A stretch of DNA of 16,376 bases from Acidobacteriota bacterium (GCA_040005235.1 JBDTZG010000091.1:1-16376); one strand, 5' to 3'. Counted from the first letter of the stretch, positions 330 to 15,621 are shown. The notes: generated by a model not told the origin, from the sequence alone. Translations and numbers: made by a program.

Positions 330-1565
330 CTAAAGGAGGCGCTGTGGGCCTTGATGCGACTTCGGAGCCGCACTCTGCGGCCGGAGGGATTCAAGGATCT
401 CTCTCCTGAGCGCGGCAGCCGCCGCCTGGCGGCCGTCCTGAAGGTAGAAATCCACGAGGTCGATACCCACAAGCGCAGCGTCGAAGAGTTGGCCCGCTGC
501 GAGAAATCTTCGGCGGGTTTCGCGAAAGACCTCTTCGGCGCGCTCGCGTTTGCCGAGTCCGGCAAGGGTTGCCGCTTCGACCCAGTCGACCTTGAGCAGG
601 AAGAGTGGTAGTTCTGCGCCAGCGCGCCGAAGACCACTCTCAAATAGGAGCCGTTGGCAACGCCGAAACTCGCCACAATCCACCAGCGTAGCGATCAAAC
701 TCTGACGTGCCGCAAGGGCCAGATCTGGGTCTCGATCGGAATCGATCGCCTGAATCCCCAGCTCGAAGAGGTCGCACGCCACTACGGGGTTTCCTCGATA
801 CCGTTCATAGATCGCGCGGGATATCAGCGTCCGCCCAGCCAAATGCTGGTCGCCGATCCGCCGATAAACCCTCTCAACGTCCCCCAGGATTTCGCATGCG
901 TCATCCCAACAGCGAGTCGAGCTGAGGTATGAAGCATAGAGGCCAGCTATCCGCGCTCCGACCCCTGGGTCTCCGGAACCGATCGCCAGCAACCCTGTCG
1001 CGCGATCGAAGGCGTGGAGCGCGGCACGGAAGCCTTCGTTCAGGCGATAGGCATTACCCAATTCCCCCCAAGCGTCTGCTCGTAGATCAGCCGTCGCTCT
1101 TGGTCCCAAATCCGCCGGATCAAGATCGTCGGCACCAGCCTGAGCCAGGAGAGCGAGCAGCAGCATACTTCGAGGATTGCGATAGCGCTCGGCAAAACTC
1201 TGATCCAGAAGTATCAACACCCGAGAGGATCTCGACGGAGTATCTCGCAGCGGAAGAGCGTCAGCAGGTTCAGCGGGCACGGGTTCTCGATTCTTCCAAT
1301 AGAGCGCTCCCTCAAGGGCCGCGTCGATTGCTGCGTCGTAGTCAATCGGCTGGACCGGGCTGGGGATCATCGCTTCGGACATTCGCTCGAACCGGCAGAA
1401 GAGCTCAACGCCGAAACGCGCTCGACACTTGGTGCACCCGGCGAGGAAATGACGTACAAGGCGGCGCAGCAGCACCCGATCCGGGTGCGCGCTATCCAAT
1501 TGCGCAAGGTGCGCAACCGTCATGTGGAAAACCGCGACGGTCTTTCGCTTTCGCGCCTTGGCCAT
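330..1565 (-). CDS. TPR-like helical repeat protein with N-terminal H-x4-C-x2-C (ZAS/zf-HC2-like) motif; 3' end probably disrupted
   Basis: 411-aa ORF with RHFLAGCTKC near the N-terminus and TPR-like helices (AWGELGNAYRLN). The C-terminal block WVEAATLAGLG...RRRF...FDAALVGIDL matches WLEARALAGLG...RRQF...YDAALAGLDL of 6744..8210. Confidence 0.85.
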   Translation of the reverse strand: MAKARKRKTVAVFHMTVAHLAQLDSAHPDRVLLRRLVRHFLAGCTKCRARFGVELFCRFERMSEAMIPSPVQPIDYDAAIDAALEGALYWKNREPVPAEPADALPLRDTPSRSSRVLILLDQSFAERYRNPRSMLLLALLAQAGADDLDPADLGPRATADLRADAWGELGNAYRLNEGFRAALHAFDRATGLLAIGSGDPGVGARIAGLYASYLSSTRCWDDACEILGDVERVYRRIGDQHLAGRTLISRAIYERYRGNPVVACDLFELGIQAIDSDRDPDLALAARQSLIATLVDCGEFRRCQRLLFESGLRRAGAELPLFLLKVDWVEAATLAGLGKRERAEEVFRETRRRFLAAGQLFDAALVGIDLVDFYLQDGRQAAAAALRREILESLRPQSAAPKSHQGPQRLL

Positions 1566-1784: not shown

Positions 1785-2330
1785 ATGATGGCTGATTCTT
1801 CACTGCCCAGATCTGATATCGCCAATCAGTTCGTTAAAGCATCGCGAATCCGCGCGATGCGCGGGCGCGTCGAGGCCTCGTCGGTCGAGGCGCAGGCGGT
1901 CGTGGTCAAAGAGCGGGCCGCGGCGGGCACTCTGCTCGTGGCGCTCCTCCGTTTGCCCGAACCGGAACGTGAGCCATCTCTACATCTCGACCCGAGGTAC
2001 CACACCGTTTCCTTCGGCCGGCTGCTGCTCGCATCCGGCGGATCTATCGATCCCGGAGAGCGCGAGGCGCTGTCTCGGCTGGCTCTGGCGGTCACCGACC
2101 TCCTGCCGCGAACGGGCCAACGGGCGGTGATGATCGCAAGCCTTCGTTCCTCGGCCCTGTTGCACATCGCCGACGCGTTACGGGATCAGAACCGGCTGGT
2201 TGAGGCCCGCGCCGCCCTCGCGCTCGTTCCAGCGGAGCTCGAGACCTGCGGCGACGTTCTGGACCAAGCGGGAATCCAAGGTGAAGAAAAGCCGCCCGAC
2301 CCGACCGGTCCCCTGGGAGCACAAGGGTGA
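1785..2330 (+). CDS. Truncated member of the same helical/TPR family (pre-TPR domain plus first repeat only)
   Basis: 181 aa. DPGEREALSRLALAVTDLL...LRSSALLHIADALR parallels NPRSMLLLALLAQAGADDL...LRADAWGELGNAYR (330..1565) and RPDTAMKLARLALRSAEL...GHIGNAYR (6744..8210). Its stop overlaps the next start (GTGA). Confidence 0.75.
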   Translation: MMADSSLPRSDIANQFVKASRIRAMRGRVEASSVEAQAVVVKERAAAGTLLVALLRLPEPEREPSLHLDPRYHTVSFGRLLLASGGSIDPGEREALSRLALAVTDLLPRTGQRAVMIASLRSSALLHIADALRDQNRLVEARAALALVPAELETCGDVLDQAGIQGEEKPPDPTGPLGAQG

Positions 2331-2893
2331 TTCATCTGGCGGAACGCAATCGGGCGATCGAACGGCTCGTGGTCGAAGAGCGTGGGCGAATCTTGCGCTA
2401 CTTGAGCGCGCTGCGCGTTCCGCCGCCGAATCGAGAAGACCTGCTCCAGACCGGCCTGGTGTTGCTCCTACAGAAATGGGAGTCGGTCGAGGATCCGTTC
2501 TCGTGGCTGCTCGGCGCTCTGCGCAACCTTCACCGGACCCAGATCCGCGATCAGAGTCGCCGGGAAAGGCTCCTTCAGCCGATGGCGCACCCCACCCCGC
2601 AAGCCATCCTCACGAAATCGATGACGCCCTCCACCCCCGACCTCCGCATCGATCTCACGCGCTGGCTCCTTGCACTCTCCCGCCAGCAGCGGATCCTCGT
2701 CGTGGGCCTCGTCCTGTTTGGCGAGCCGCTCGGCGAGGTGGCGCGACGAGCCGGCGTCAAACCGGCGTCGGCTCAAACTTTGAAGTCTCGTTCCCTCAAG
2801 CGGCTACGACGTCTGGCCGGACGGGACGGCGGCGCGCCGACTCGCCGAGCGCCCGGTGCCCACGATCCGGCGACGAACCGCCGGCTTCGGTAA
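2327..2893 (+). CDS. ECF-type (sigma70 group 4) RNA polymerase sigma factor
   Basis: 188 aa with region 2-like REDLLQTGLVLL..W....DPFSWLLGALRN and region 4-like HTH LSRQQRILV...GEPLGEVARRAGVKPASAQTLKSRSLKRLR. GGGAG at 2315-2319 precedes the GTG start. Confidence 0.85.
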   Translation: MIHLAERNRAIERLVVEERGRILRYLSALRVPPPNREDLLQTGLVLLLQKWESVEDPFSWLLGALRNLHRTQIRDQSRRERLLQPMAHPTPQAILTKSMTPSTPDLRIDLTRWLLALSRQQRILVVGLVLFGEPLGEVARRAGVKPASAQTLKSRSLKRLRRLAGRDGGAPTRRAPGAHDPATNRRLR

Positions 2894-5068: not shown

Positions 5069-5347
5069 TTTTGCAGTGGTGCAACCGACTTTTGCGCTGG
5101 TGCCCCTACGTTTTGCACTTGTGCGCTGGAGTTTTGCCGTGGTGCAACCGCCCAGTGCATAGGTGCGCTGGAACTTTGCACAGGTGCGCTGCAGCTTTGC
5201 AGTAGTGCCCGCGCGTTTTGTACAGGTGCACCGCGAAATTGCACAACTGCATTCCGCCAGTGAACCTGTGCAACGCCGCTGTGCACCTATGCACCCGGAT
5301 TTTGCAGTGGTGCGCGGACGCTATGCACCTCTGCACAGCGCTGTGCA
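5069..5347. repeat. Degenerate 21-bp tandem array, pattern NNN-TGCA-N4-TGC(A/G/C)-N6, 13 units plus a partial unit
   Basis: Units start at 5069, 5090, 5111, 5132, 5153, 5174, 5195, 5216, 5237, 5258, 5279, 5300 and 5321 (the last is 20 bp), with a partial unit at 5341. The second TGC is present in all 13 units and the first TGC in 11 of 13. Confidence 0.93.
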
Positions 5348-5887: not shown

Positions 5888-6568
5888 TCACGAAGGTTCC
5901 TTTTCTTCGTCGATCGGCGCTCCGACTTCGAAGGCCTGAACGGGCTTGAACAACCCCGCCAGCAAGGTGCCATCGAACCCGGCGGGCTCGCCGGCCGGCC
6001 GCGAAACCACCACGTTCGCGCCTCGGCGTTCGCGCCGTCGACCTTCGATCAGCTCGAACAACTGGACCGGTTTGCTTTCCGCCCTCCGAAGGATCTGCGC
6101 CCAGATGCGCAATCCGACGATGCCGCCGATCGGCAACGACGCCGAGTGCTCAGACGCCAAATTGTCGAGCCGGCCCGCGAGACTGGACAGCAACTCGCCA
6201 TGTCCGCACAGCAAAGCGCATCGCCCGACCTCAAGCGCAGCGTCCGCCGCCCGCAGCGGATCGCCCACCCCTTCCGAGATCGTGGCCGCTCCCTCGAAAT
6301 GGAACGCGGCCTCCAGGAAGTCGCCTTCGCGGGAGAGGTGCTCGCCGCGGACCAGGAGCAGCCGAGCCAGGCGGCGCAAGGTCGAGGGCTCCGGGCCGTT
6401 TTCGGCTCGCCAGGCCCGGCCCCGCGTCGGCCGCGGCGCGCTCGCTCTCTCGCCGCTTTCGACCTCAGCCGAGGTCAAAAAAGGAGGGCGCGCAAAGCCT
6501 TCCGCTTGCGCGCCCCGGGAATGGGGTGAGCGATCTTTTGCCATCTTGGGGAGGGGGTTGTCGGCCAC
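5888..6568 (-). CDS. Hypothetical protein with a TPR-like helical pair
   Basis: 226 aa. LARLLLVRGEHLSREGDFLEAAFHFEGAATISEGVGDPLRAADAALEVG resembles the last repeats of the TPR paralogs. Operon-like spacing with the downstream gene. Start is uncertain. Confidence 0.65.
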   Translation of the reverse strand: MADNPLPKMAKDRSPHSRGAQAEGFARPPFLTSAEVESGERASAPRPTRGRAWRAENGPEPSTLRRLARLLLVRGEHLSREGDFLEAAFHFEGAATISEGVGDPLRAADAALEVGRCALLCGHGELLSSLAGRLDNLASEHSASLPIGGIVGLRIWAQILRRAESKPVQLFELIEGRRRERRGANVVVSRPAGEPAGFDGTLLAGLFKPVQAFEVGAPIDEEKEPS

Positions 6569-6743: not shown

Positions 6744-8210
6744 TTGAGCCCCCCATCCCCAAAATCCCGCAAGCCCCCGACCGGTGCGGTGCTGCGCCAG
6801 ATCCGCGAGGATCTCGACCTCACCCAGGCCGGGCTGGCCGCGATCCTCCAGGTAACGACCCATACGATCTCCGATTGGGAGCGCGAAGATATTCTCAGTC
6901 CCACTCGGCTCGTTCGCGTCGCCGAACAGCTGGGCGTACCTCCGCAGGTGGTCGACGCGTATCTTGCGGCCCACCAGCTCCACCGCCACGCCCAAGCCCT
7001 CGACCTCCCCATACCTCTCGCCCCAAACGCCTCGACCGGCCTGTGGGCCACCGCGACGTCGATTTCCGGAGTCGCTCACGGCTCCCTCCTGGATACTCAC
7101 CTCTCCGCCCAGGCCCAGGCCGACCGCGCCGCGGCCGCGGCCCATTGGGCGGCTTTGTCGGCCGCCGCGGAAGTCGATCGCGGTGTCCTGATCGAGTTCG
7201 CGCCCGACGTGGCTACCTGGGCGCTCGTCGAGCGCTTGGCTGCCGAAAGCATCGAAGAGGCGCCCGACCGGCCGGACACCGCGATGAAGCTCGCCCGGCT
7301 GGCGCTCCGTTCGGCCGAGCTGGCGCCGGTTTCCGAGGCGCTCCGCGCTTGTCTGCTCGGGTACGCCCACGGGCACATCGGCAACGCGTACCGGGTCGCC
7401 GCCGAACTCCGCCCGGCCGAGGCGGAATTCGTCATAGCCCGAGAGTACTGGCCCGAGGGGATGACCGCGCCGGCCGGCCTGCTTTCCGAGGCTCGTCTCT
7501 TCGACCTGGAGGCCTCCCTCCGTCGCGATCTCCGACAGTTCGATAAAGCCCTCGAGTTGCTCGATCGGGCACTCGCCTTGACCCCCAACGGGCCGGCCGC
7601 CGGCCAGATCCTCTTGAATCGGAGCGCGGCTCTCAGGCAGATGCAAGACCCCGAGGGGTCTTTAGAGGCACTGCGCCGCGCAATACCAGCCTTCGGCGAA
7701 CAGTTGGCCGGCCGGCCCCGCTTTCAGGCTCTGTTCAACCTATCCTCAACCCTGCTCGACGTGGGCCGCTTTTCCGAGTCTCTCGAGCTTCTTCCGGAGG
7801 TGCGCGACCTCGCAACCCAATTGCGCCGTCAGTACGATCTGATCCGCCTGCTCTGGCTCGAAGCTCGCGCGCTGGCAGGCCTTGGCCGACTTGACGCCGC
7901 GATCGTTGGCCTCGACCAGGTGCGCAGACAATTCACAGCCCTGAGAAACCCCTACGACGCGGCGCTCGCGGGCCTCGACCTGGCCGCTCTGTACCTTGAA
8001 GCCGGGAAGAATTCCGAAACTCGCGATCTTGCGCGCCAGTTGGCGAAGGTTTTCGACGCGCTCCGAATCAAGCGTGAACAGTTCGCCGCTGTCCGCCTGT
8101 TCCTTGACGCCGCAGAGCGGGAGGCGGCTACGGCCGAGATGGCCCGGCGAGCGGCGGCTTCCTTGCGCGCCGTTCGCCGAACCCAAGAAACCGATGATAA
8201 GTGCGCCTGA
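6744..8210 (+). CDS. XRE/Cro-type HTH + TPR-array transcriptional regulator (RRNPP-like architecture)
   Basis: N-terminal GAVLRQIREDLDLTQAGLAAILQVTTHTISDWERE is an XRE HTH, followed by multiple TPR-like repeats (RQFDKALELLDRALAL; ALFNLSSTLLDVGRFSESLELL). TTG start with GAGGA at 6730-6734. Confidence 0.9.
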   Translation: MSPPSPKSRKPPTGAVLRQIREDLDLTQAGLAAILQVTTHTISDWEREDILSPTRLVRVAEQLGVPPQVVDAYLAAHQLHRHAQALDLPIPLAPNASTGLWATATSISGVAHGSLLDTHLSAQAQADRAAAAAHWAALSAAAEVDRGVLIEFAPDVATWALVERLAAESIEEAPDRPDTAMKLARLALRSAELAPVSEALRACLLGYAHGHIGNAYRVAAELRPAEAEFVIAREYWPEGMTAPAGLLSEARLFDLEASLRRDLRQFDKALELLDRALALTPNGPAAGQILLNRSAALRQMQDPEGSLEALRRAIPAFGEQLAGRPRFQALFNLSSTLLDVGRFSESLELLPEVRDLATQLRRQYDLIRLLWLEARALAGLGRLDAAIVGLDQVRRQFTALRNPYDAALAGLDLAALYLEAGKNSETRDLARQLAKVFDALRIKREQFAAVRLFLDAAEREAATAEMARRAAASLRAVRRTQETDDKCA

Positions 8211-8228
8211 TCTCCAATCCATTCAACG

Positions 8229-8558
8229 CTACGGCTTGCAACCTCCGTTTCCATCAATGTCGCAACCGGCCTCCCGATCGACCGCCAGGCCGCTCCGGCA
8301 ACTTCCGTTCCCATCAATGCCGCAACCGATCTCCCTCTCGGCCGCCGCACCGCTCCGGCAACGGCCATCCGGATCCATGATGCACCCCTCCTCTCCCCAA
8401 ACCGCCGACAGGGAGCCCCAGAGCCGGCCGACCCACGACGACACCCCTCCCTCATCCCACCCTGAGGAAGCTCGGGCTGCAGGGGGGCTCAAGAACGCCA
8501 AGACGAGAAAGCACAGGACCAAGGCGGGAACCAACGGACGCGACGTCGGTTTGGACAT
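8229..8558 (-). CDS. Secreted multi-core peptide precursor (109 aa) with three GCx[IM]D[PG][DN]GxC cores
   Basis: AAGGAG RBS at 8571-8566. Sec-type signal peptide ending in A-R-A, then a Trp-rich segment SWVGRLWGSLSAVWG, then cores GCIMDPDGRC, GCGIDGNGSC and GCDIDGNGGC. Confidence 0.88.
   Translation of the reverse strand: MSKPTSRPLVPALVLCFLVLAFLSPPAARASSGWDEGGVSSWVGRLWGSLSAVWGEEGCIMDPDGRCRSGAAAEREIGCGIDGNGSCRSGLAVDREAGCDIDGNGGCKP
8238..8390 (-). repeat. 60-bp (20-codon) tandem repeat encoding the three peptide cores
   Basis: Cores at 8358-8387, 8298-8327 and 8238-8267, with an exact 60-bp period. Linkers are RSGAAAEREI and RSGLAVDREA. Confidence 0.93.
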
Positions 8559-8584
8559 GACGGTTCTCCTTACGCCGAGGGATA

Positions 8585-8632
8585 CGTGGCGTTATGCCAC
8601 GCTCTTCGACGAAAAAACCGGACTTTTCCGGT
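8585..8632. promoter_or_regulatory. Two palindromes in the divergent peptide/double-HTH spacer, candidate operators
   Basis: CGTGGC-GTTAT-GCCACG at 8585-8601 and ACCGGA-CTTT-TCCGGT at 8617-8632, both with perfect 6-bp arms. Confidence 0.45.
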
Positions 8633-8641
8633 AAAACCATC

Positions 8642-9949
8642 ATGATTCATGATTCCGATTCTCTTCACACCCCCGAAGAAAGGCGTTTCCACCCCGCGGC
8701 GATCGTCGTTCGCCTTCTTCTCGCGTTGGGTGCGCTCACCCAGGCGCGACTCGCGAAAGCCTCCGGGGTCGATCAGAGCCTCATCTCGTTTTTTCAGCGG
8801 GGAGAGAAGGTCCCGAGCCCCGCGACACTCGCGCGGCTTGCCCAGGCCGCCGTCTGGCCCCTCCCCTTGGTCGAGCAGATGGCCGCCGCCGCAATCCGGT
8901 TCCGCGACAACCCGACGACGCTGTCGCTCGACTCACCCGCCGCCGCAATTGGCCGGCAGGTCGCGATCCTCGTCGAGGCCGCTCTGTTCGACCTTTGGTT
9001 GCTCCTACGGGCCGACCGCTCCGCGCGCATCCCGCGCGAGCCTTCCGCTCAAGATGCAATCGCCGAGGATCTCTGGGCACGGTTGAAGACTCTCAACGCT
9101 CGCCAGCGGCGAGTCCTGGTTGACTTCTCTCCGGCCTTCCGTCAGCCGAGCCTTGTTCTTCGGCTGGAACTTGAGAGCGAGCGGCTCGCCGCCGAGCGTC
9201 CTGCGGACGCCGCAGAACTCGCCCGGCTCGCGCAGCACATCGCGTCGCTTTGCAGGGACGCCAAGGCTACCCCGGCAGGCCCGACGCGGCGAGGTCGCGC
9301 AGCTCCTCGGCAACCTCTTGAAGCGCCCGCCGAAAGGTGTTTTCGCCACGAGGCGATCGTTATTCGCCTCCTTCTCGCCCTAGGAGGGCTCACCCGGGCG
9401 CGACTCGCAGAAGCCTCCGGGGTCGACCTGAGTCTCATCTCGTTTTTTCAGCGGGGCAAGCTGGTCCCGAGCCCCGAGACGCTCGCGCGGCTAGCCCAAG
9501 CCGCCGGCTGGCCCCTTCCCCTGGTCGAGCCGATGGCCACCGCCGCAATCCGATTCCGCGACAACCCCGCGATCCTCGAACCGGTGCCGCTCGAATCCCC
9601 CGCCGCCGACGTCGGCCGCCGGGTCGCGGTCCTCGCCGAGGCGGCTTTGCTCGACTTCGGCGTGCTCCTACCGGGCCACCGCTCCGCGCGCACCCCGAGC
9701 GAGCCTTCCGCTGACGATGCGATCGCCGAGGATCTTTGGGCGCGGTTAAAGACTCTTGACCCTCGCCAGCGCCGGGTCTTGATCGACTTCTCTTCGGCCT
9801 TTCGTCAGAAGAGCCTCGCCCTTCGCTTGGCCCAGGAGGGGGAGCACCTGGCGGTGGACCGTCCCGAGGAAGCGGCCGAGCTGGCCCGGCTCGCGCTGCA
9901 TGTCGAGGCGCTGTGCGGGTGGCTCGTTTTAAGGCGCTCGCGCACCTGA
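8642..9949 (+). CDS. Tandem-duplicated XRE-HTH + helical domain protein lacking the TPR array
   Basis: Two copies of LT[QR]ARLA[KE]ASGVD.SLISFFQRG..VPSP.TLARLAQAA, each followed by AEDLWARLKTL..RQRRVL.DFS.AFRQ.SL.LRL..E.E.LA..RP..AAELARLA. The start may be 8594 or 8642. Confidence 0.88.
   Translation: MIHDSDSLHTPEERRFHPAAIVVRLLLALGALTQARLAKASGVDQSLISFFQRGEKVPSPATLARLAQAAVWPLPLVEQMAAAAIRFRDNPTTLSLDSPAAAIGRQVAILVEAALFDLWLLLRADRSARIPREPSAQDAIAEDLWARLKTLNARQRRVLVDFSPAFRQPSLVLRLELESERLAAERPADAAELARLAQHIASLCRDAKATPAGPTRRGRAAPRQPLEAPAERCFRHEAIVIRLLLALGGLTRARLAEASGVDLSLISFFQRGKLVPSPETLARLAQAAGWPLPLVEPMATAAIRFRDNPAILEPVPLESPAADVGRRVAVLAEAALLDFGVLLPGHRSARTPSEPSADDAIAEDLWARLKTLDPRQRRVLIDFSSAFRQKSLALRLAQEGEHLAVDRPEEAAELARLALHVEALCGWLVLRRSRT
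8672..9916 (+). repeat. Intragenic direct duplication: about 8672-9253 and 9326-9916
   Basis: Nucleotide-level similarity throughout. The offset is 654 bp at the start and 663 bp at the end (9-bp in-frame indel). Confidence 0.93.
9864..9905 (+). repeat. Direct repeat copy 1 (partner at 11119-11160)
   Basis: CCGAGGAAGCGGCCGAGCTGGCCCGGCTCGC versus CCGAGGAAGCGGCCGGGCTGACCCGGCTCGC: 29/31 identical, and 35/42 over the extended match (hand count). Confidence 0.85.
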
Positions 9950-9968: not shown

Positions 9969-10646
9969 ATGCGTCGAATTGCTGCTGCTCTGCTGATCGT
10001 CGTCCCAACCCTTGCCGGGGCTGCCCACGGCCAGGATTCTCCGCGGCCGCCCTGGAAGTGGACCGATGAGGAGCGAATCGCCAAACGCTATGACCCTTCT
10101 TCCATGCACTCCCGCGAAAACGACTACATCGCGAAGACGGAAGGCGCCGCTGTTGCCATCGGACGCGACGTCGTGGATGGCGACAAAAACCCCGAGCTCT
10201 TCCTACCCTCCGAGGTCTATCAAGGCCTCCTCAGGCGGGCCTTCTCTTCCGTGCCCGAGGCCAGCCAGGTCTTTCGCGACGGATATCAGTCCAAGTCCGG
10301 TGGCCTGCGGATCGACGACGACTTCTGGCAGCGACTTGAACGAACCGCCCGGCCCTATCTGGATTCGACCAAGGCGCAGCTAGCGCTCGTGAAGGAGTAT
10401 CAGACGGCGCACCCCGGCAGGCGGGCGGAAATCGACCGCCAGGCCGACGAGCGCGGCATCACGGATTGCCGGCTGGTCATCCAGAACCTCGAGGCGGCGC
10501 GCGCGACCTTCGGCCGGGAGGCGTTCGATCGCTTCCTCTACGAGGCTGTTGCGCCCGGCATGTCCAGTATCTCCGTCAATGGTGCCTCCGTCGACAGCTA
10601 CCTCTCCGCCGACCACCTTCGCTACCTCGCAGGAGGCTGCCAATGA
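9969..10646 (+). CDS. Secreted helical hypothetical protein (225 aa)
   Basis: AAGGAGG RBS at 9957-9963 and signal peptide ending A-H-G. It has two Cys (DCRL and terminal GGCQ). No family assigned. Confidence 0.85.
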   Translation: MRRIAAALLIVVPTLAGAAHGQDSPRPPWKWTDEERIAKRYDPSSMHSRENDYIAKTEGAAVAIGRDVVDGDKNPELFLPSEVYQGLLRRAFSSVPEASQVFRDGYQSKSGGLRIDDDFWQRLERTARPYLDSTKAQLALVKEYQTAHPGRRAEIDRQADERGITDCRLVIQNLEAARATFGREAFDRFLYEAVAPGMSSISVNGASVDSYLSADHLRYLAGGCQ

Positions 10647-11110
10647 AAGCCACCCGACTGGCCCCCTGGATCTTGATCGCTTGCTGTCTCGCCTGGGGGC
10701 TGATCCCCGCTTTCGCTATCGGTGAGCACTTCGAGGGTGGCGTCATGGTGAACCAACGGCCCCGCGCCGTCGACTCCGCCAGCGAGGCTACGTTGTTGAC
10801 GGGCATGAACACCGTCTCACAGAACAGCATCATCAAGGGGACTCATTTCCTCCTCTTGGACGGAAATATTCGGATCGCCGGGGGAACCTGGATCGGTGTC
10901 ACCGAATACATTGGATACGTGCGCACCCCGAGCCAAGAGGGGCGGTGCTATCTCGCGACGTTCGACGCGTACTACCCCCCTGATCCTAATGTCTTTGGCA
11001 TCTGGGGCTCCCCAATTGTCTGCGTCCCCGAACATTCGATGGATTGCGGACACTGTGGCCCGGGAACGGGCAATCCCTGTACCCTGGACACGGAGGAAAT
11101 CCCGGAGTAG
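10643..11110 (+). CDS. Secreted Cys-rich hypothetical protein (155 aa), possibly truncated
   Basis: Start re-called to ATG 10643 (ATGA overlap with the upstream stop). Signal peptide MKATRLAPWILIACCLAWGLIPAFA, a beta-strand-like body, and five Cys in the C-terminal third. Confidence 0.8.
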   Translation: MKATRLAPWILIACCLAWGLIPAFAIGEHFEGGVMVNQRPRAVDSASEATLLTGMNTVSQNSIIKGTHFLLLDGNIRIAGGTWIGVTEYIGYVRTPSQEGRCYLATFDAYYPPDPNVFGIWGSPIVCVPEHSMDCGHCGPGTGNPCTLDTEEIPE

Positions 11111-11177: not shown

Positions 11178-13217
11178 TCAGCCCGCGAGCCCCTTGAGCT
11201 GCTTTTCCAGCCGCTTGCGGTGGCGGTTTTCGGGGTCCATCTGGACCAGGATCTTGAGCGCCAGCTCCGCCGAGCTGCTCTGGCCTTGGGCGAGGAACGC
11301 CTCCACTTGGCGGACGCCCTGCTCGATCGACTCGTGGCGCCGGTGCGCCGTCTCGGTCGAATCGATCTGGGCGAGCAGCCGGTCGCCCTGTTCGGCGCCT
11401 TCCGGCAGGCGCGCCAGCTCGTGCGCTGCTTGCCGGGCGGTCAGGAAATCCTTTTTTACGATCGCCTCGGCGGTCCGCCGCGCCAGCTCCGCGGAGCGGG
11501 CTTCGGTGCCAAGCGTCGCGCGCGCCGCGTCGATCCTTTCGCGATAGGCGTCGAGCATGACCCGCGGCACGTCGAGACGGGCTAGGTCGCCCAGCTCGCG
11601 CTCCGCCTCGGCGATCTTGCGGTTCGCAAGAAGCGTTTCGAGCCGGCGCCTACGGGCGGCGACGTCGATCGAATCGCGGTCCTCCCGCTCGGCGGCGACG
11701 ATCGACTCTTCGAGCGAAGCGACTCTTTCCACCGAGCCGCCGATCCGGCGCACGATCTCCACCTGGCTTCGCGCCCCGCGTAGGTCGCCCCGGAGGAGGG
11801 CGGCCCGGCCCTGCTCCAGAACGTCCTCGATCCGGCGATCGCGCTCGATCTCCTCAGCCAGGTTGGAGATGCGCGCCTCCATCTCGCTGCGCCTCGGATA
11901 ATTGGCCATCTGTTCGAGCAGGCTTTCAAGAGCGAACCGGGCGAGCGCCAACTGGCTCTTGGCCAAATACCCTTCGAGCACGCGTTCGGTTTCCCGGACG
12001 CTCGCTCCTATCTGATTCTTCGCTTCGGCCTCGGCCAGGCTCCGGCGCACGGCTTCGAGACCGGGCGTTTGCGGGTTGGTCGCTTCCAGCTTGTGCATTA
12101 GGTCGGCGGCTTGGACCAACTGCCCGGCAGCGATCGCCTCGCGGGCTCGCCCGAGCACCTGGTCGCCTTCCCGGGCTCGCGCCGCCGCCTTTTCGATCTG
12201 GGCGAGCAGCTCCATGCGTTCCTCACGGGTGAGCTCGGAAGAGCTGCGCGGTTTCTGGACCGCGGCCAGAGGGCTGAGCCGCCCGGCAGAGCCGACGAGC
12301 CTCGCGGGAATCTGGATCTCCTGGGTCGCCGCGGGGCTCAGGCCGTGTCCCACTTTTTCGAGCGCCAGGATGAAGCTCACCGCATCGGGAAAGCGCTGCT
12401 CGCGCTCGCGCTCCAGAGCCCGCAGGACCACCCGATCGAGCTCCGCCGGCACCGGAATCGCGGGATTGCGCCCGGACAGCGGCAGCGGATCCTCGGAAAG
12501 CCGCTTGAAGATGAAGCCGTGAGGGCTTTCCGAATCGAACGGCGGCCGGCCGCAGATCATCTCGTAGAGCACCAGGGCGAACGAATAGATGTCGCTCCGC
12601 CGATCGAGGCCCGCTTCGCTCGCCCCCGGACCGGCCTGCTCGGGCGAGCAGTACTGGAGCTTGCCCATGAACATGCCGGCCTTCGTGATCTCCAGGTTCG
12701 CATCGGGACCCGGATCGCGGGCGAGGCCGAGATCGATGATCTTCACCCGCAGCTGGCCGCGGCGGTCCTCGGTGATCATCAGGTTGTCGGGCGACAGGTC
12801 GCGGTGGATGACGCCGGTCGAGTGGATCGCCTCCAGGCCGCGCAGAGTCTGAATGCCGAGTTGGACCGCCACCGCTACCGGGAACGGCCCTTCGCGGCGC
12901 AGGCGATCGCCCACGTCCTGGCCCTCGATGTACTCCCAGACCATATAGAAGCTGCCGTCGGCGAGCCGGGAGTAGTCGTAGAGGATGGCGACGTTCGGGT
13001 GTTTGATCTGGGTGGCGAGCCGGGCTTCGCGCAGGAATCGGGCTTGAGCCACCGGGTCGGTCGCGAGATCCTGACGCAGGATTTTGACCACCCTCAGCTC
13101 CTGGAGGTGGAGATGGCGGACGAGATAGACCTCGCCCATGCCGCCGGCACCCAAGGGGCGTACGATCTCGTACTTGCCCTCGAGAACCGAGCCGATGTCC
13201 CGCGGGCTTTCGCCCAT
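11178..13217 (-). CDS. Hanks-type Ser/Thr protein kinase with a C-terminal helical/TPR-like region, no obvious transmembrane segment
   Basis: Motifs LGAGGMGEVY, VVKIL, HPNV, IHRDLSPDN, IIDLGLA, YCSPEQ, DRRSDIYS. Start re-called to ATG 13217 with GGAGG at 13226-13222. Confidence 0.95.
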   Translation of the reverse strand: MGESPRDIGSVLEGKYEIVRPLGAGGMGEVYLVRHLHLQELRVVKILRQDLATDPVAQARFLREARLATQIKHPNVAILYDYSRLADGSFYMVWEYIEGQDVGDRLRREGPFPVAVAVQLGIQTLRGLEAIHSTGVIHRDLSPDNLMITEDRRGQLRVKIIDLGLARDPGPDANLEITKAGMFMGKLQYCSPEQAGPGASEAGLDRRSDIYSFALVLYEMICGRPPFDSESPHGFIFKRLSEDPLPLSGRNPAIPVPAELDRVVLRALEREREQRFPDAVSFILALEKVGHGLSPAATQEIQIPARLVGSAGRLSPLAAVQKPRSSSELTREERMELLAQIEKAAARAREGDQVLGRAREAIAAGQLVQAADLMHKLEATNPQTPGLEAVRRSLAEAEAKNQIGASVRETERVLEGYLAKSQLALARFALESLLEQMANYPRRSEMEARISNLAEEIERDRRIEDVLEQGRAALLRGDLRGARSQVEIVRRIGGSVERVASLEESIVAAEREDRDSIDVAARRRRLETLLANRKIAEAERELGDLARLDVPRVMLDAYRERIDAARATLGTEARSAELARRTAEAIVKKDFLTARQAAHELARLPEGAEQGDRLLAQIDSTETAHRRHESIEQGVRQVEAFLAQGQSSSAELALKILVQMDPENRHRKRLEKQLKGLAG

Positions 13218-13243
13218 CGCGCCTCCGTTCGAAAACAGCCCGT

Positions 13244-13249
13244 ATTGTA
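13244..13249 (-). promoter_or_regulatory. Putative -10 element (TACAAT) for the kinase gene
   Basis: 5/6 match to TATAAT about 27 bp upstream of the re-called ATG, in a GC-rich context. No clear -35. Confidence 0.45.
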
Positions 13250-13449
13250 GCGCCGCTTCCCTCGCGTACCGTTCGCCTTCCACCATGAGCATGTCATTCC
13301 AGGCGAAGAGGTCGGCCTCGGCGTTACCGATCGCGGGCCACGCTCCCGCTCTCCTCCCGATCCCTGCATCCCCAAGGTGCGCCGGAGGAAAGAAACGAGC
13401 CGGCGGGGTCCGCTCATCCGCTATCCTTTGGCGATCCTCAATTCGCTCC

Positions 13450-15621
13450 ATGATCCGACTTCGCCAAATTCCTCAGCTCACACTCGCCCGGATCGCGGCT
13501 TTCGCGGTACTGCTGGCCCTCGGAATCCTCGGCGCATGCTCGCGGGAGGAGGTCTCGAAACCAAGGCCAAGGAATCTCGTTTTGGTGACGATCGATACGC
13601 TTCGGCGCGACCATGTCGGGGCCTACGGCGACGCCCAAGCAGCCACCCCGGCGCTCGACGAATTGGCGCGAGAGGGTCTTCGGTTCGACGCCGCGACCGC
13701 CAACGCCCCTCTGACCCTGGTTTCTCATTCGAGCCTTCTTTCCGGTTTGTTGCCGCCGCATCACGGATTACGCAACAACGGTGCCGGTGCTTTCCCCGCG
13801 GATAGCGAGACGCTCGCCACTGTGCTTTCGGCCGCGGGCTACGAGACCGGCGCGTTCGTTTCCGCGTTCGTGCTCGACCGGCGGTTCGGCCTCGGCCGCG
13901 GCTTTGCGGCCTATGACGACGAGATCGAGCGCGAGCCGGGAGGCCGTCCGTCGCTCGAAGCCGAGCGGCGCGGCGACCAGGCGATGGACCGGGCGCTCGC
14001 CTGGCTCGACGAGAAGACGAAGGGCGAAGCTCAGAAACCCTTCTTCCTCTGGGTCCATCTCTACGACCCGCACGCCCCCTACGCTCCGCCATCGCCATTT
14101 CGCGAACGTTTCCCGGGCGATCCCTACCGCGGCGAGATCGCGTTTGCCGATTCCCAGGTCGGGCGCCTGCTCGAAGATCTCGATCGCCGCGGACTCTCCG
14201 GCTCCACTCTGATCGCCGTCGCCGCGGATCATGGCGAGGGCCTAGGCGAGCACGGCGAAGCGACTCACGGCATGCTGATCTACGAGTCGACTCTCGCGGT
14301 GCCGCTGTTGCTGCGCGGCCCGGGCCTTCTGCCGCGAACGATCGCCGTGCCGGTCGGCCTGTGCGATCTGGGCCCCACCCTCGCGGGCCTGCTCGGCCAC
14401 CCCTTCCCGCCACCCGCGGCCGGCAAGACGCTCGACGGCCGCGATCTTTCCGACTCGCTTCGCCAGGGCAAAGAACCCGCGCGGGGCGAGGTCTACGCCG
14501 AGACCCGCTACCCCGAAATTTTCGGCTGGAGCCCGCTCTCGATGCTCCGGCGACGCGACGCGAAATACATCTCGGCGCCGCGCCCGGAGCTCTACGACTT
14601 GGCGAGCGACCCGGGCGAGCGACGGAACTTGCTATCGCCGCGACCTGCTCCGACAGCGCAAGATCCGGGCGCCGGCTTCGCGGCGCGCCTGGCGGAGATC
14701 GAAGCCGGCGCGGTGCAGACGACGTCACCGCCGATCGATGCCGAGACCGCGGCGAGGCTCGCGAGCCTCGGTTACGTCGCCGGAGGAAACCGCCAAATCC
14801 CCACACAGGCGGGCGCCGGGCGACCCGATCCGAAAGACCGGATCGGCTTGTTCCAGCGCTTCGAGGCGGCCGCCCTGGCACTCCGTTCGGGCGACTCGGC
14901 CCGGGCGATCTCCGAGCTGCGTTCCCTCGCCGCCGCCGATCCCGGCAACTCGACCTTCCGGAGCCGCCTCGCCCAGGCGCTGCGCGAGAGCGGCCGGCCG
15001 GCCGAGGCGGTCCCCGTGCTGCGCGAAGCGGCGCTCGCGGCTCCCGCCGATCCCGACGTCTGGTACGACCTCGCGGTGGCGCTCCAAGGAATCGGCCGAG
15101 CTGCCGAGGCGCAGATCGCGATCGAGCGCGCGATCCAGCTCGACGACACGCGCCCCGACCCGCACAACACCTTGGGGCTGCTGCTGCTCGCCCAAGGGCA
15201 CGGCGAGGAGGCGCGGCGCCAGTTCGAGCGCGCGGTAGAGATCGATCCGCGCGGCTCGGTCGCCCTCAACAACTTAGGCAACACCCTGCGCAGCCTCGGC
15301 CGGACGGCCGAAGCCGAGGGGGCGTACCGGCGCGCGATCGCCGCGGCCCCCGCCTACGCCGAGCCCTGGAACGGACTCGGGGCGCTCCTGGTCGAGGCCA
15401 ATCGCCCGCGCGAAGCAATAGACTGCTTCGATCGATCTAGAAAGCTCGCCCCGGGAAACCTGGAGACCCTGATCAACCGGGGCATCGCGTTGGAGCTGGC
15501 CGGCGACCGGAGCGGCGCCGCCGCGAGCTATCGCGATTTCCTCGCCGCCGCGGGCGGCGCCCCGGCCTGGGCCGAACAACGCCGGGCCGCCCAACAGCTG
15601 CTCGCCCGCCTCGTCCGCTGA
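13450..15621 (+). CDS. Sulfatase-like (alkaline phosphatase superfamily) lipoprotein with C-terminal TPR repeats
   Basis: Start re-called to ATG 13450. Lipobox LGAC, NLVLVTIDTLRRDH, TLVSHSSLLSG, HLYDPHAPY, ADHGEGLGEHGE, PELYDLASDPGE, then canonical TPRs (ALNNLGNTLRSLGRTAEAEGAYRRAIAAAP). Confidence 0.93.
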   Translation: MIRLRQIPQLTLARIAAFAVLLALGILGACSREEVSKPRPRNLVLVTIDTLRRDHVGAYGDAQAATPALDELAREGLRFDAATANAPLTLVSHSSLLSGLLPPHHGLRNNGAGAFPADSETLATVLSAAGYETGAFVSAFVLDRRFGLGRGFAAYDDEIEREPGGRPSLEAERRGDQAMDRALAWLDEKTKGEAQKPFFLWVHLYDPHAPYAPPSPFRERFPGDPYRGEIAFADSQVGRLLEDLDRRGLSGSTLIAVAADHGEGLGEHGEATHGMLIYESTLAVPLLLRGPGLLPRTIAVPVGLCDLGPTLAGLLGHPFPPPAAGKTLDGRDLSDSLRQGKEPARGEVYAETRYPEIFGWSPLSMLRRRDAKYISAPRPELYDLASDPGERRNLLSPRPAPTAQDPGAGFAARLAEIEAGAVQTTSPPIDAETAARLASLGYVAGGNRQIPTQAGAGRPDPKDRIGLFQRFEAAALALRSGDSARAISELRSLAAADPGNSTFRSRLAQALRESGRPAEAVPVLREAALAAPADPDVWYDLAVALQGIGRAAEAQIAIERAIQLDDTRPDPHNTLGLLLLAQGHGEEARRQFERAVEIDPRGSVALNNLGNTLRSLGRTAEAEGAYRRAIAAAPAYAEPWNGLGALLVEANRPREAIDCFDRSRKLAPGNLETLINRGIALELAGDRSGAAASYRDFLAAAGGAPAWAEQRRAAQQLLARLVR

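Follow-up and report, generated by a model that had tools for sequence, protein, structure and literature searches.

The closest described systems to the locus analysed here are the RRNPP/RRNPPA cassettes of Bacillota, especially those of the HTH plus 9-TPR type (NprR-NprX, PlcR-PapR), together with Rap-Phr. The RRNPP_detector paper presents peptide signals as typical of Bacillota, and its workflow legend covers Firmicutes and viruses (PMC10075063). A second paper describes RRNPPA propeptides with tandemly duplicated pheromones: in Bacillus-phage Rap-Phr systems, tandem duplication has given one propeptide several related putative pheromone units, each a linear penta- to heptapeptide, and known extracellular proteases mature them (PMC11343458). 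Peptide quorum sensing through a cytoplasmic receptor is treated as a Gram-positive trait. Supplements aside, our search of the literature found no report of such a system in Acidobacteriota or elsewhere beyond Gram-positives.

The window, meaning the whole 16,376-nucleotide stretch of Acidobacteriota DNA analysed here, comes from a genome of 6.2 Mb in 140 contigs. As in RRNPP cassettes, a small gene for a predicted secreted propeptide adjoins a regulator gene, and here the two genes converge with 18 bp between their stop codons. Like the Bacillus-phage Rap-Phr propeptides, the precursor carries several related units, yet each unit spans about 12-14 residues and contains a Cys pair. Further differences are evident. 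RRNPP systems belong to Bacillota, whereas this locus lies in an acidobacterium, of the Thermoanaerobaculia judging by one named homolog, that is presumably diderm. The cassettes here are usually arranged tail to tail, and no membership of RRNPP could be found at the sequence level. In place of a short linear C-terminal pheromone, the precursor has beta-turn repeats that a disulfide could close, along with a conserved Trp helix. The cassette also includes extra parts, a sensor-less regulator and a tail-copy protein, and its function is a prediction. The features of the locus are collected in Table 1.

Table 1. Features of the peptide-regulator locus, with positions counted from the first nucleotide of the window
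Feature	Position	Strand	Basis or remark
Peptide gene (P0001), 109 aa	8229..8558	-	ORF, dN/dS, family profile matches
Predicted signal peptide, residues 1-30	8469..8558	-	Sequence reading, AF2 helix 9-23, plan shared by paralogs
Trp-rich amphipathic pro-region, residues 31-57 (W34, W42, W47, W54)	8388..8468	-	AF2 helix 39-53
Core 1, GCIMDPDGRC, residues 58-67	8358..8387	-	Family-typical D-P-x-G type
Core 2, GCGIDGNGSC, residues 78-87	8298..8327	-	Rare D-G-N-G type
Core 3, GCDIDGNGGC, residues 98-107	8238..8267	-	Followed by KP and stop
60-bp tandem DNA repeat	8238..8362		TRF: 2.1 copies, 83% matches, score 173
Shine-Dalgarno AAGGAG, 7 nt 5' of ATG	8566..8571	-	Sequence reading
Palindrome ACCGGA-N4-TCCGGT, perfect 6+6, upstream of peptide gene	8617..8632		Candidate operator or small hairpin
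Palindrome ATCATGA-A-TCATGAT, 7+7, divergent promoter region	8629..8643		Palindrome scan
XRE-HTH + TPR regulator, 488 aa	6744..8210	+	Pfam HTH_3 4e-10, TPR_12 1e-8
Second regulator, divergent from peptide gene, without TPR sensor	8594..9949	+	Two HTH_3 stretches
Tail-copy protein, 226 aa, divergent from full regulator	5888..6568	-	Family profile against regulator alignment
Two secreted proteins, 225 aa and 155 aa, directly behind second regulator	9969..11110	+	Recurrence as a pair
Sensor-domain paralog without XRE HTH	330..1565	-	hhalign against regulator alignment: 99.9% probability, E 8e-32

The peptide gene is a genuine gene that evolves under purifying selection. Comparing six related same-genus genes two by two gives a dN/dS of 0.22-0.39 in its frame for all 15 pairs; dS is near saturation in most of them, and the closest pair (dS 0.20) has a dN/dS of 0.35. 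A GGAG-type site lies 5-11 nt upstream in each of the 15 paralog peptide genes listed. A longer ORF on the opposite strand (7996-8634) overlies the gene. Since the minus-strand frame has this dN/dS and its protein motif is kept in relatives, the longer ORF is read as a shadow frame in GC-rich DNA and not as coding sequence. Searches of Pfam and NCBIfam with the peptide returned zero matches.

Analysis of the translated ORF confirms the anatomy that a sequence-only reading of the window had described, namely three C-x7-C cores at an exact 20-residue period, each with Glu two residues ahead of its Gly and a basic residue behind it. The cysteines lie at residues 59/67, 79/87 and 99/107; the core glycines are preceded as EEG, EIG and EAG, and the closing cysteines are followed by R, R and K. 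On sequence reading, the predicted signal peptide has K3 and R7, a hydrophobic stretch at 9-23, and A-R-A ahead of S31. In the pro-region, W54 is invariant in a 22-row alignment and nearly so in a 101-row alignment. Cores 2 and 3, with their linkers, were generated by the 60-bp tandem repeat, and this repeat, together with the family-wide motif, shows that the core pattern is not due to chance. The AF2 model built with 101 relatives (pLDDT 60, pTM 0.26) contains helices at 9-23 and 39-53 and two-residue hairpin strands at cores 1 and 3 only; its linkers fall below 50 pLDDT, and it includes no globular domain. Tiny hairpins joined by low-confidence linkers would fit beads on a string, that is, independent mini-hairpins.

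At the DNA level, two of four DNA runs, the probable sources, carry the stretch unchanged, and no copy-number variants of the peptide repeat were seen in the four runs compared. The contig of a related strain (run X3) stops at 8396, beside the repeats. For the interval 7600-9400, no RNA data set covering it was listed. In the closest relative, the peptide gene is split over both ends of one contig (L031, L036; G002 contig C111), and the split falls inside the repeated cores, so the assembly apparently broke at the tandem repeat. The window contains other tandem repeats as well. At the left edge, positions 1-139 hold a 21-bp repeat of 6.5 copies with 93% matches; it reads as TTELDQT-like heptads, and its open frame continues past the end of the window. 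Further 21-bp repeats (about 2-4 copies, 66-88% matches) lie at 5069-5208, between an E1 dehydrogenase gene and a 137-aa ORF.

The core motif is conserved well beyond this gene. A set of 155 relatives was assembled from the listed profile matches, minus the query and the 731-aa protein P0148, plus seven sequences from a large-database search; the set is skewed toward Cys-type members because the profile was built mostly from Cys-type sequences. Within it, strict Cys cores number three in 85 proteins, four in 30, two in 24, one in six and five in three, while seven proteins have none. Copy number thus ranges from 0 to 5 with a mode of 3, and homologs keep the motif, as the sequence-only reading expected; close same-genus relatives carry two to four copies. 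The 442 cores of these relatives give the consensus [DE]-x-G-C-x-[ILV]-D-P-[NDS]-G-[RG]-C. The pattern of fixed G, C, D, G and C with variable positions in between, first noticed in the three cores of the window, holds across the family: Gly stands at -1 in 439/442 cores, Asp at +3 in 432/442 and Gly at +6 in 441/442. Pro at +4 is nearly as constant (427/442).

Comparative analysis also separates the traits of the family from those of the window gene. The exact 20-residue period belongs to the window gene, since core-to-core spacing in the relatives has a mode of 21 and can be as short as 13 or as long as 71. Cores 2 and 3 of this gene are likewise set apart by their D-G-N-G variant: only 9/442 family cores have Gly at +4, and D-G-N-G recurs in close relatives of the gene, where such cores are mixed with D-P-[DN]-G cores and the order of the two types varies. 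Behind the last core, 94 of the 148 core-bearing relatives end in a two-residue tail. No conserved cleavage site follows the cores, as the residue after the closing Cys is R in 96 of the 442, A in 80, L in 62 and G in 60. Conservation also reaches upstream of the loop, to the [DE]-x-G ahead of the first Cys, so that a functional unit of more than nine residues is probable. Moreover, family members that have no Cys retain G-x3-D-P-x-G-[RK]-P, so the disulfide is not the defining feature, and in sequence terms the predicted disulfide looks like a staple added to a beta-turn unit.

The paralogs share a common plan consisting of a signal peptide, a helix of the form W..[LF]LS.LW[AG]..G, and one to four units. 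P0148 departs in scale: it is a large secreted protein without a Pfam match, in which about 35 tandem, nonapeptide-like G-x3-DPNG-[RK] units, all Cys-less, lie between two unrelated domains. An array of this length indicates that the unit can also act as a structural repeat, without release.

Genome mining shows that the window gene is one member of a large, lineage-restricted family of peptide-regulator cassettes that has no name. A search of 5.8 billion proteins found seven relatives, one of them named, a 'hypothetical protein' from a Thermoanaerobaculia MAG. The 22-row profile matched 1784 cluster representatives among 1.84 billion proteins at E <= 0.001, of which 553 reached E <= 1e-10. 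In the ESM Atlas the matches were Acidobacteriota clusters only, all unnamed. Within the window's genome, tblastn gave 25 matches and the profile 22, and a 14-seed HMM run over all open frames recovered 34 frames at E <= 0.1, two of which look like false matches by sequence. Each of the 24 other genomes from the same GTDB family has 2-39 matches to the profile, and 4 of 16 genomes from other families of the order match as well. Elsewhere in the phylum, 200 genomes were sampled evenly, all from outside the window's own family; with 23 candidates scored per genome, the family was not found in them at E <= 1e-6.

The genes of this family lie almost obligatorily beside genes for HTH-TPR regulators. 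Of the 34 peptide-family frames in the window's genome, 29 have a regulator-family gene no more than 456 bp away; one more has such a gene at 1759 bp, and four have no regulator within 3 kb. Counted from the other side, a peptide frame lies no farther than 600 bp from 34 of the 43 full-length-like regulators, leaving nine without a detected peptide. Two layouts recur. In the first, which is that of the window, a full HTH-TPR regulator converges with a Cys-loop peptide, and a second regulator, short or full, diverges upstream of it. In the second, the peptide lies directly upstream of a TPR protein without an XRE HTH, on the same strand. Regulator and peptide distance matrices for 14 pairs are correlated (Mantel r 0.42-0.68, p <= 0.0016), which shows that the cassettes were duplicated as units; this is evidence of shared history and not of binding. 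When leader and HTH distances are taken out, the partial correlation between core and TPR distances is 0.16, too weak to argue for ligand-receptor coevolution. The pairing itself lends support to a signalling role. In the 18-bp gap between regulator and peptide genes there is no terminator-like hairpin, and so, from the sequence, the convergent transcripts may overlap.

The second regulator is an internal tandem duplication of the HTH and linker half, matches the regulator profile at positions 6-199, and may truly start at the ATG at 8642; its internal repeat is also visible in the DNA-run comparison, as a joint that goes back on itself. The tail-copy protein brings to mind SinR/SinI, in which a regulator is paired with a small protein that copies its oligomerisation helices. 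Here, the family of the 226-aa neighbour aligns with the C-terminal helices of the regulators, residues 72-165 on 371-462 (hhalign, 86% probability, E 5e-6), and the likeness is one of profiles, since the protein as a single sequence reaches only 2% probability and the family profile is required. Its genome contains 13 further matching open frames, many of them adjoining other cassettes.

The 225-aa and 155-aa secreted neighbours, which match nothing in Pfam, recur as a pair directly behind the regulator of the contig C20 cassette (G000 C20:11829-12961), with 78% and 71% identity. This recurrence makes them candidate outputs, and they are possibly the regulated cargo of the system. Farther along the window lie a 757-aa Ser/Thr protein kinase whose C-terminal region is long and coiled (11178-13451, minus strand) and an 827-aa sulfatase fused to many TPRs (13138-15621, plus strand); both are ordinary neighbours that do not recur with cassettes.

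Near the left end of the window, the sensor-domain paralog without an XRE HTH has an H-x4-C-x2-C stretch near its N-terminus and adjoins a 181-aa ORF and an ECF-type sigma factor (1785-2893, plus strand). No peptide gene was detected beside it, and the window's contig gave no second peptide match. On contig C103, genes for sigma factors and a Cys-less repeat peptide (IQIDGNG, three times) are interleaved with similar TPR genes, an arrangement that suggests a sigma/anti-sigma-like branch of the same family.

Promoter analysis points to possible operators. Palindromes with arms of at least 6 lie upstream of 13/15 paralog peptide genes, against a mean fraction of 0.33 (maximum 0.60) in 200 shuffles, and on sequence reading CATGAT or CATAAC-like elements recur upstream of paralogs. 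The perfect palindrome ACCGGA-N4-TCCGGT occurs once in the window, no more than expected by chance; genome-wide, with up to one mismatch, it has 48 sites against 10 for a control. Since these sites show no clustering at cassettes, the palindrome is no more than a candidate operator. The genome also encodes a single SBP_bac_5 protein, of the Opp-type importer kind, whose gene is followed by two permease genes and lies 3.4 kb from another cassette.

Structurally, the regulator resembles peptide receptors, yet in a generic way. Pfam places HTH_3 at residues 17-68 and TPR families at 255-357, and sequence reading revealed no hydrophobic membrane segment, in keeping with RRNPP receptors, which are cytoplasmic TPR-superhelix proteins that mostly carry an XRE HTH at the N-terminus. 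The AF2 model, built with 26 paralogs, is all-helical with a pLDDT of 90.2, and consists of the HTH, a long helix and a paired-helix superhelix at about 121-484. This predicted superhelix is of the kind that binds extended peptides, and the model matches peptide-binding TPR structures; in the structure comparison, the eukaryotic LGN TPR scores above Rap and NprR, which makes the match a generic one. The modelled fold would suit a receptor for extended peptides without singling one out. Membership of RRNPP by sequence was considered and rejected: Pfam and NCBIfam match the regulator with generic TPR and HTH families alone, phmmer against the PDB gives one weak HTH match, and no RRNPP receptor is among the best 60 of 199 PDB profile matches. 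A complex prediction joining TPR residues 121-488 to the mature peptide 31-109, run without controls, gave ipSAE values of 0.01 and 0.00 and carries no verdict either way.

The peptide, or fragments of it, could be the ligand of the adjacent regulator, in the manner of RRNPP quorum sensing, and we put the probability of this at roughly 45%. The ORF product would be a Sec-exported pro-peptide, of which about 79 residues would be left after removal of the signal peptide. This mature part would comprise the conserved Trp-rich amphipathic helix and three [DE]-x-G-C-x-hydrophobic-D-[PG]-x-G-x-C modules, each forming a tight beta-turn stapled by a periplasmic disulfide, with flexible linkers between them. 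It is one of about 20-30 paralogs in the genome, each encoded tail-to-tail or head-to-tail with its own cytoplasmic XRE-HTH and TPR-superhelix regulator; often a short regulator without a sensor, and a protein that copies the regulator tail on its own, are encoded with them. Whole or cut into modules, the peptide would be the cognate ligand of the neighbouring regulator. Its route would run from export through oxidation and possible trimming outside the cytoplasm to uptake by an Opp-type importer and binding in the TPR groove. Binding would then switch the regulator at palindromic operators within the peptide's own promoter and at the neighbouring secreted-protein genes. A diderm phylum would in this way have arrived, by independent evolution, at the logic of RRNPP peptide quorum sensing.

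This ligand role is favoured by the pairing with regulators (29/34 and 34/43) and by the duplication of cassettes as units in the Mantel analysis. It also agrees with the signal-peptide plan, the strong Shine-Dalgarno site, the dN/dS of 0.22-0.39 and a product without a globular fold, whose C-terminal end lies two residues past the last core in 94/148 relatives. Core copy number and variable positions differ between cassettes and between close relatives, and the phage Rap-Phr paper supplies a precedent for tandem pheromones (PMC11343458). The SBP_bac_5 gene with its two permease genes would provide an importer, and the palindromes enriched upstream of peptide genes would provide operators. Other observations weigh against it. 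The regulator is no RRNPP member by sequence, and it has a generic fold match. The organism is presumably diderm; social action would require a periplasmic peptide to cross the outer membrane, and the cytoplasm would reduce the disulfide. The best-conserved parts of the peptide are the Trp helix and the G-C/D-P-x-G scaffold and not a variable 'code', and the partial correlation of core with TPR distances is weak. Finally, P0148 uses the unit as a structural repeat, four family-like frames stand without a regulator within 3 kb, and nine of the 43 regulators lack a detected peptide.

A second explanation, unlikely but serious, reverses the roles: the peptide would be a regulated product, a small secreted effector used intact, and the HTH-TPR regulator would sense something else and control its expression. 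Such an effector might be, for example, a mini-protein whose multivalent beta-turn loops serve an adhesive, matrix, antimicrobial or protease-decoy function. Pairing and unit duplication are equally expected for a regulator and its target, and two further traits of the family, scaffold residues that are more conserved than any specificity positions and cores without a conserved cleavage site behind them, agree with intact use. The explanation keeps its standing mainly because of P0148, where the unit forms a long structural array. About 30 dedicated regulators for about 30 small effectors would nevertheless be unusual, the predicted TPR superhelix is of the kind that binds extended peptides, and the peptide has no stable predicted fold. 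The genomic neighbourhood of the cassettes also argues against an effector. Of 165 ORFs selected within 4.5 kb of peptide genes at 19 loci of the window's genome, 152 were scanned, the other 13 being left out as overlapping peptide ORFs or as shadow frames. The only recurrent Pfam families among the 152 are HTH_3, HTH_31 and TPR_12, and no immunity, export or anchoring genes recur.

The peptide might also feed a private, non-social loop, although we regard this as distinctly improbable. Periplasmic oxidation or proteolysis would report the state of the envelope, and re-imported fragments would be sensed, so that the cassette would act as an envelope or redox sensor. The expected anatomy is identical to that of the ligand proposal, and a presumably diderm host would retain a Sec substrate in the periplasm, where oxidation would determine the state of the Cys pairs; the single Opp-like importer of the genome would also serve. 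About 30 diversified channels per genome are, however, hard to justify for one envelope signal, and the existence of Cys-less members also counts against the loop.

Multi-core RiPP precursors, such as those of cyanobactins and the KEX2-processed repeats of fungi, combine a leader with repeated cores in variable copy number. The peptide here has a similar layout, repeated core cassettes of variable number behind a conserved leader-like helix, and the sequence-only reading had raised the idea that enzymes encoded elsewhere modify and release the cores. We consider this very unlikely. Such precursors are made with a cytoplasmic leader, whereas this one has a Sec signal peptide, which would take the protein away from cytoplasmic maturases, and no maturation enzymes are linked to it at the 19 loci. 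Among the 152 neighbour ORFs, no maturase family recurs, whether radical SAM/SPASM, YcaO, lanthipeptide, prolyl-oligopeptidase or C39-transporter; the only radical SAM protein near the loci is of the lipoyl-synthase type, at one locus, and a subtilase occurs at one locus. This subtilase gene (Peptidase_S8; L024:2213-4036, G000 C118) lies about 4 kb from the Cys-less peptide of contig C118 and encodes the sole protease near the 19 loci.

A calcium- or metal-binding loop repeat of the D-x-[DN]-G type is barely credible: core 3 reads D-I-D-G-N-G, which we take to be the first half of an EF-hand loop, but this EF-hand-like D-x-D-G-N-G is present in one core of the window gene, the first position of the relatives' D-G-N-G cores is G, V or D, and across the family a single acidic residue, the Asp at +3, is conserved while +1 is G, I, S or T and +4 is Pro in 427/442, so that the consensus C-x-[ILV]-D-P-x-G-x-C does not contain the EF-hand/Excalibur-like pattern D-x-[DN]-x-[DN]-G. 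A deamidation timer, a further suggestion of the sequence-only reading, fares no better, since Asn precedes Gly in only 156/442 cores. What stands from that first interpretation is a secreted, multi-core, precursor-like protein; its RiPP, calcium-loop and timer ideas found no support.

Returning to the peptide as a ligand of its regulator, a broader proposal is doubtful but would have wide consequences: one Thermoanaerobaculia family, a diderm soil lineage, may have invented RRNPP-type sensing independently, beyond the Gram-positives, and operate dozens of orthogonal peptide channels per genome. Each channel would pair a cognate cytoplasmic HTH-TPR receptor with a Sec-exported precursor whose several cores are beta-turn pheromones stapled by disulfides. 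Under this proposal, the D-P-[DN]-G and D-G-N-G flavours that coexist in one precursor in the clade of this gene could possibly form an agonist-antagonist pair or serve as two signals.

Direct tests are feasible, as the candidate ligands are short and synthesisable and the receptor is soluble and predicted with high confidence. If the ligand proposal is true, cytoplasmic-receptor peptide communication would extend to a soil phylum that is abundant, poorly cultured and equipped with an outer membrane, and a naturally diversified set of ligand-receptor pairs would become available for study.
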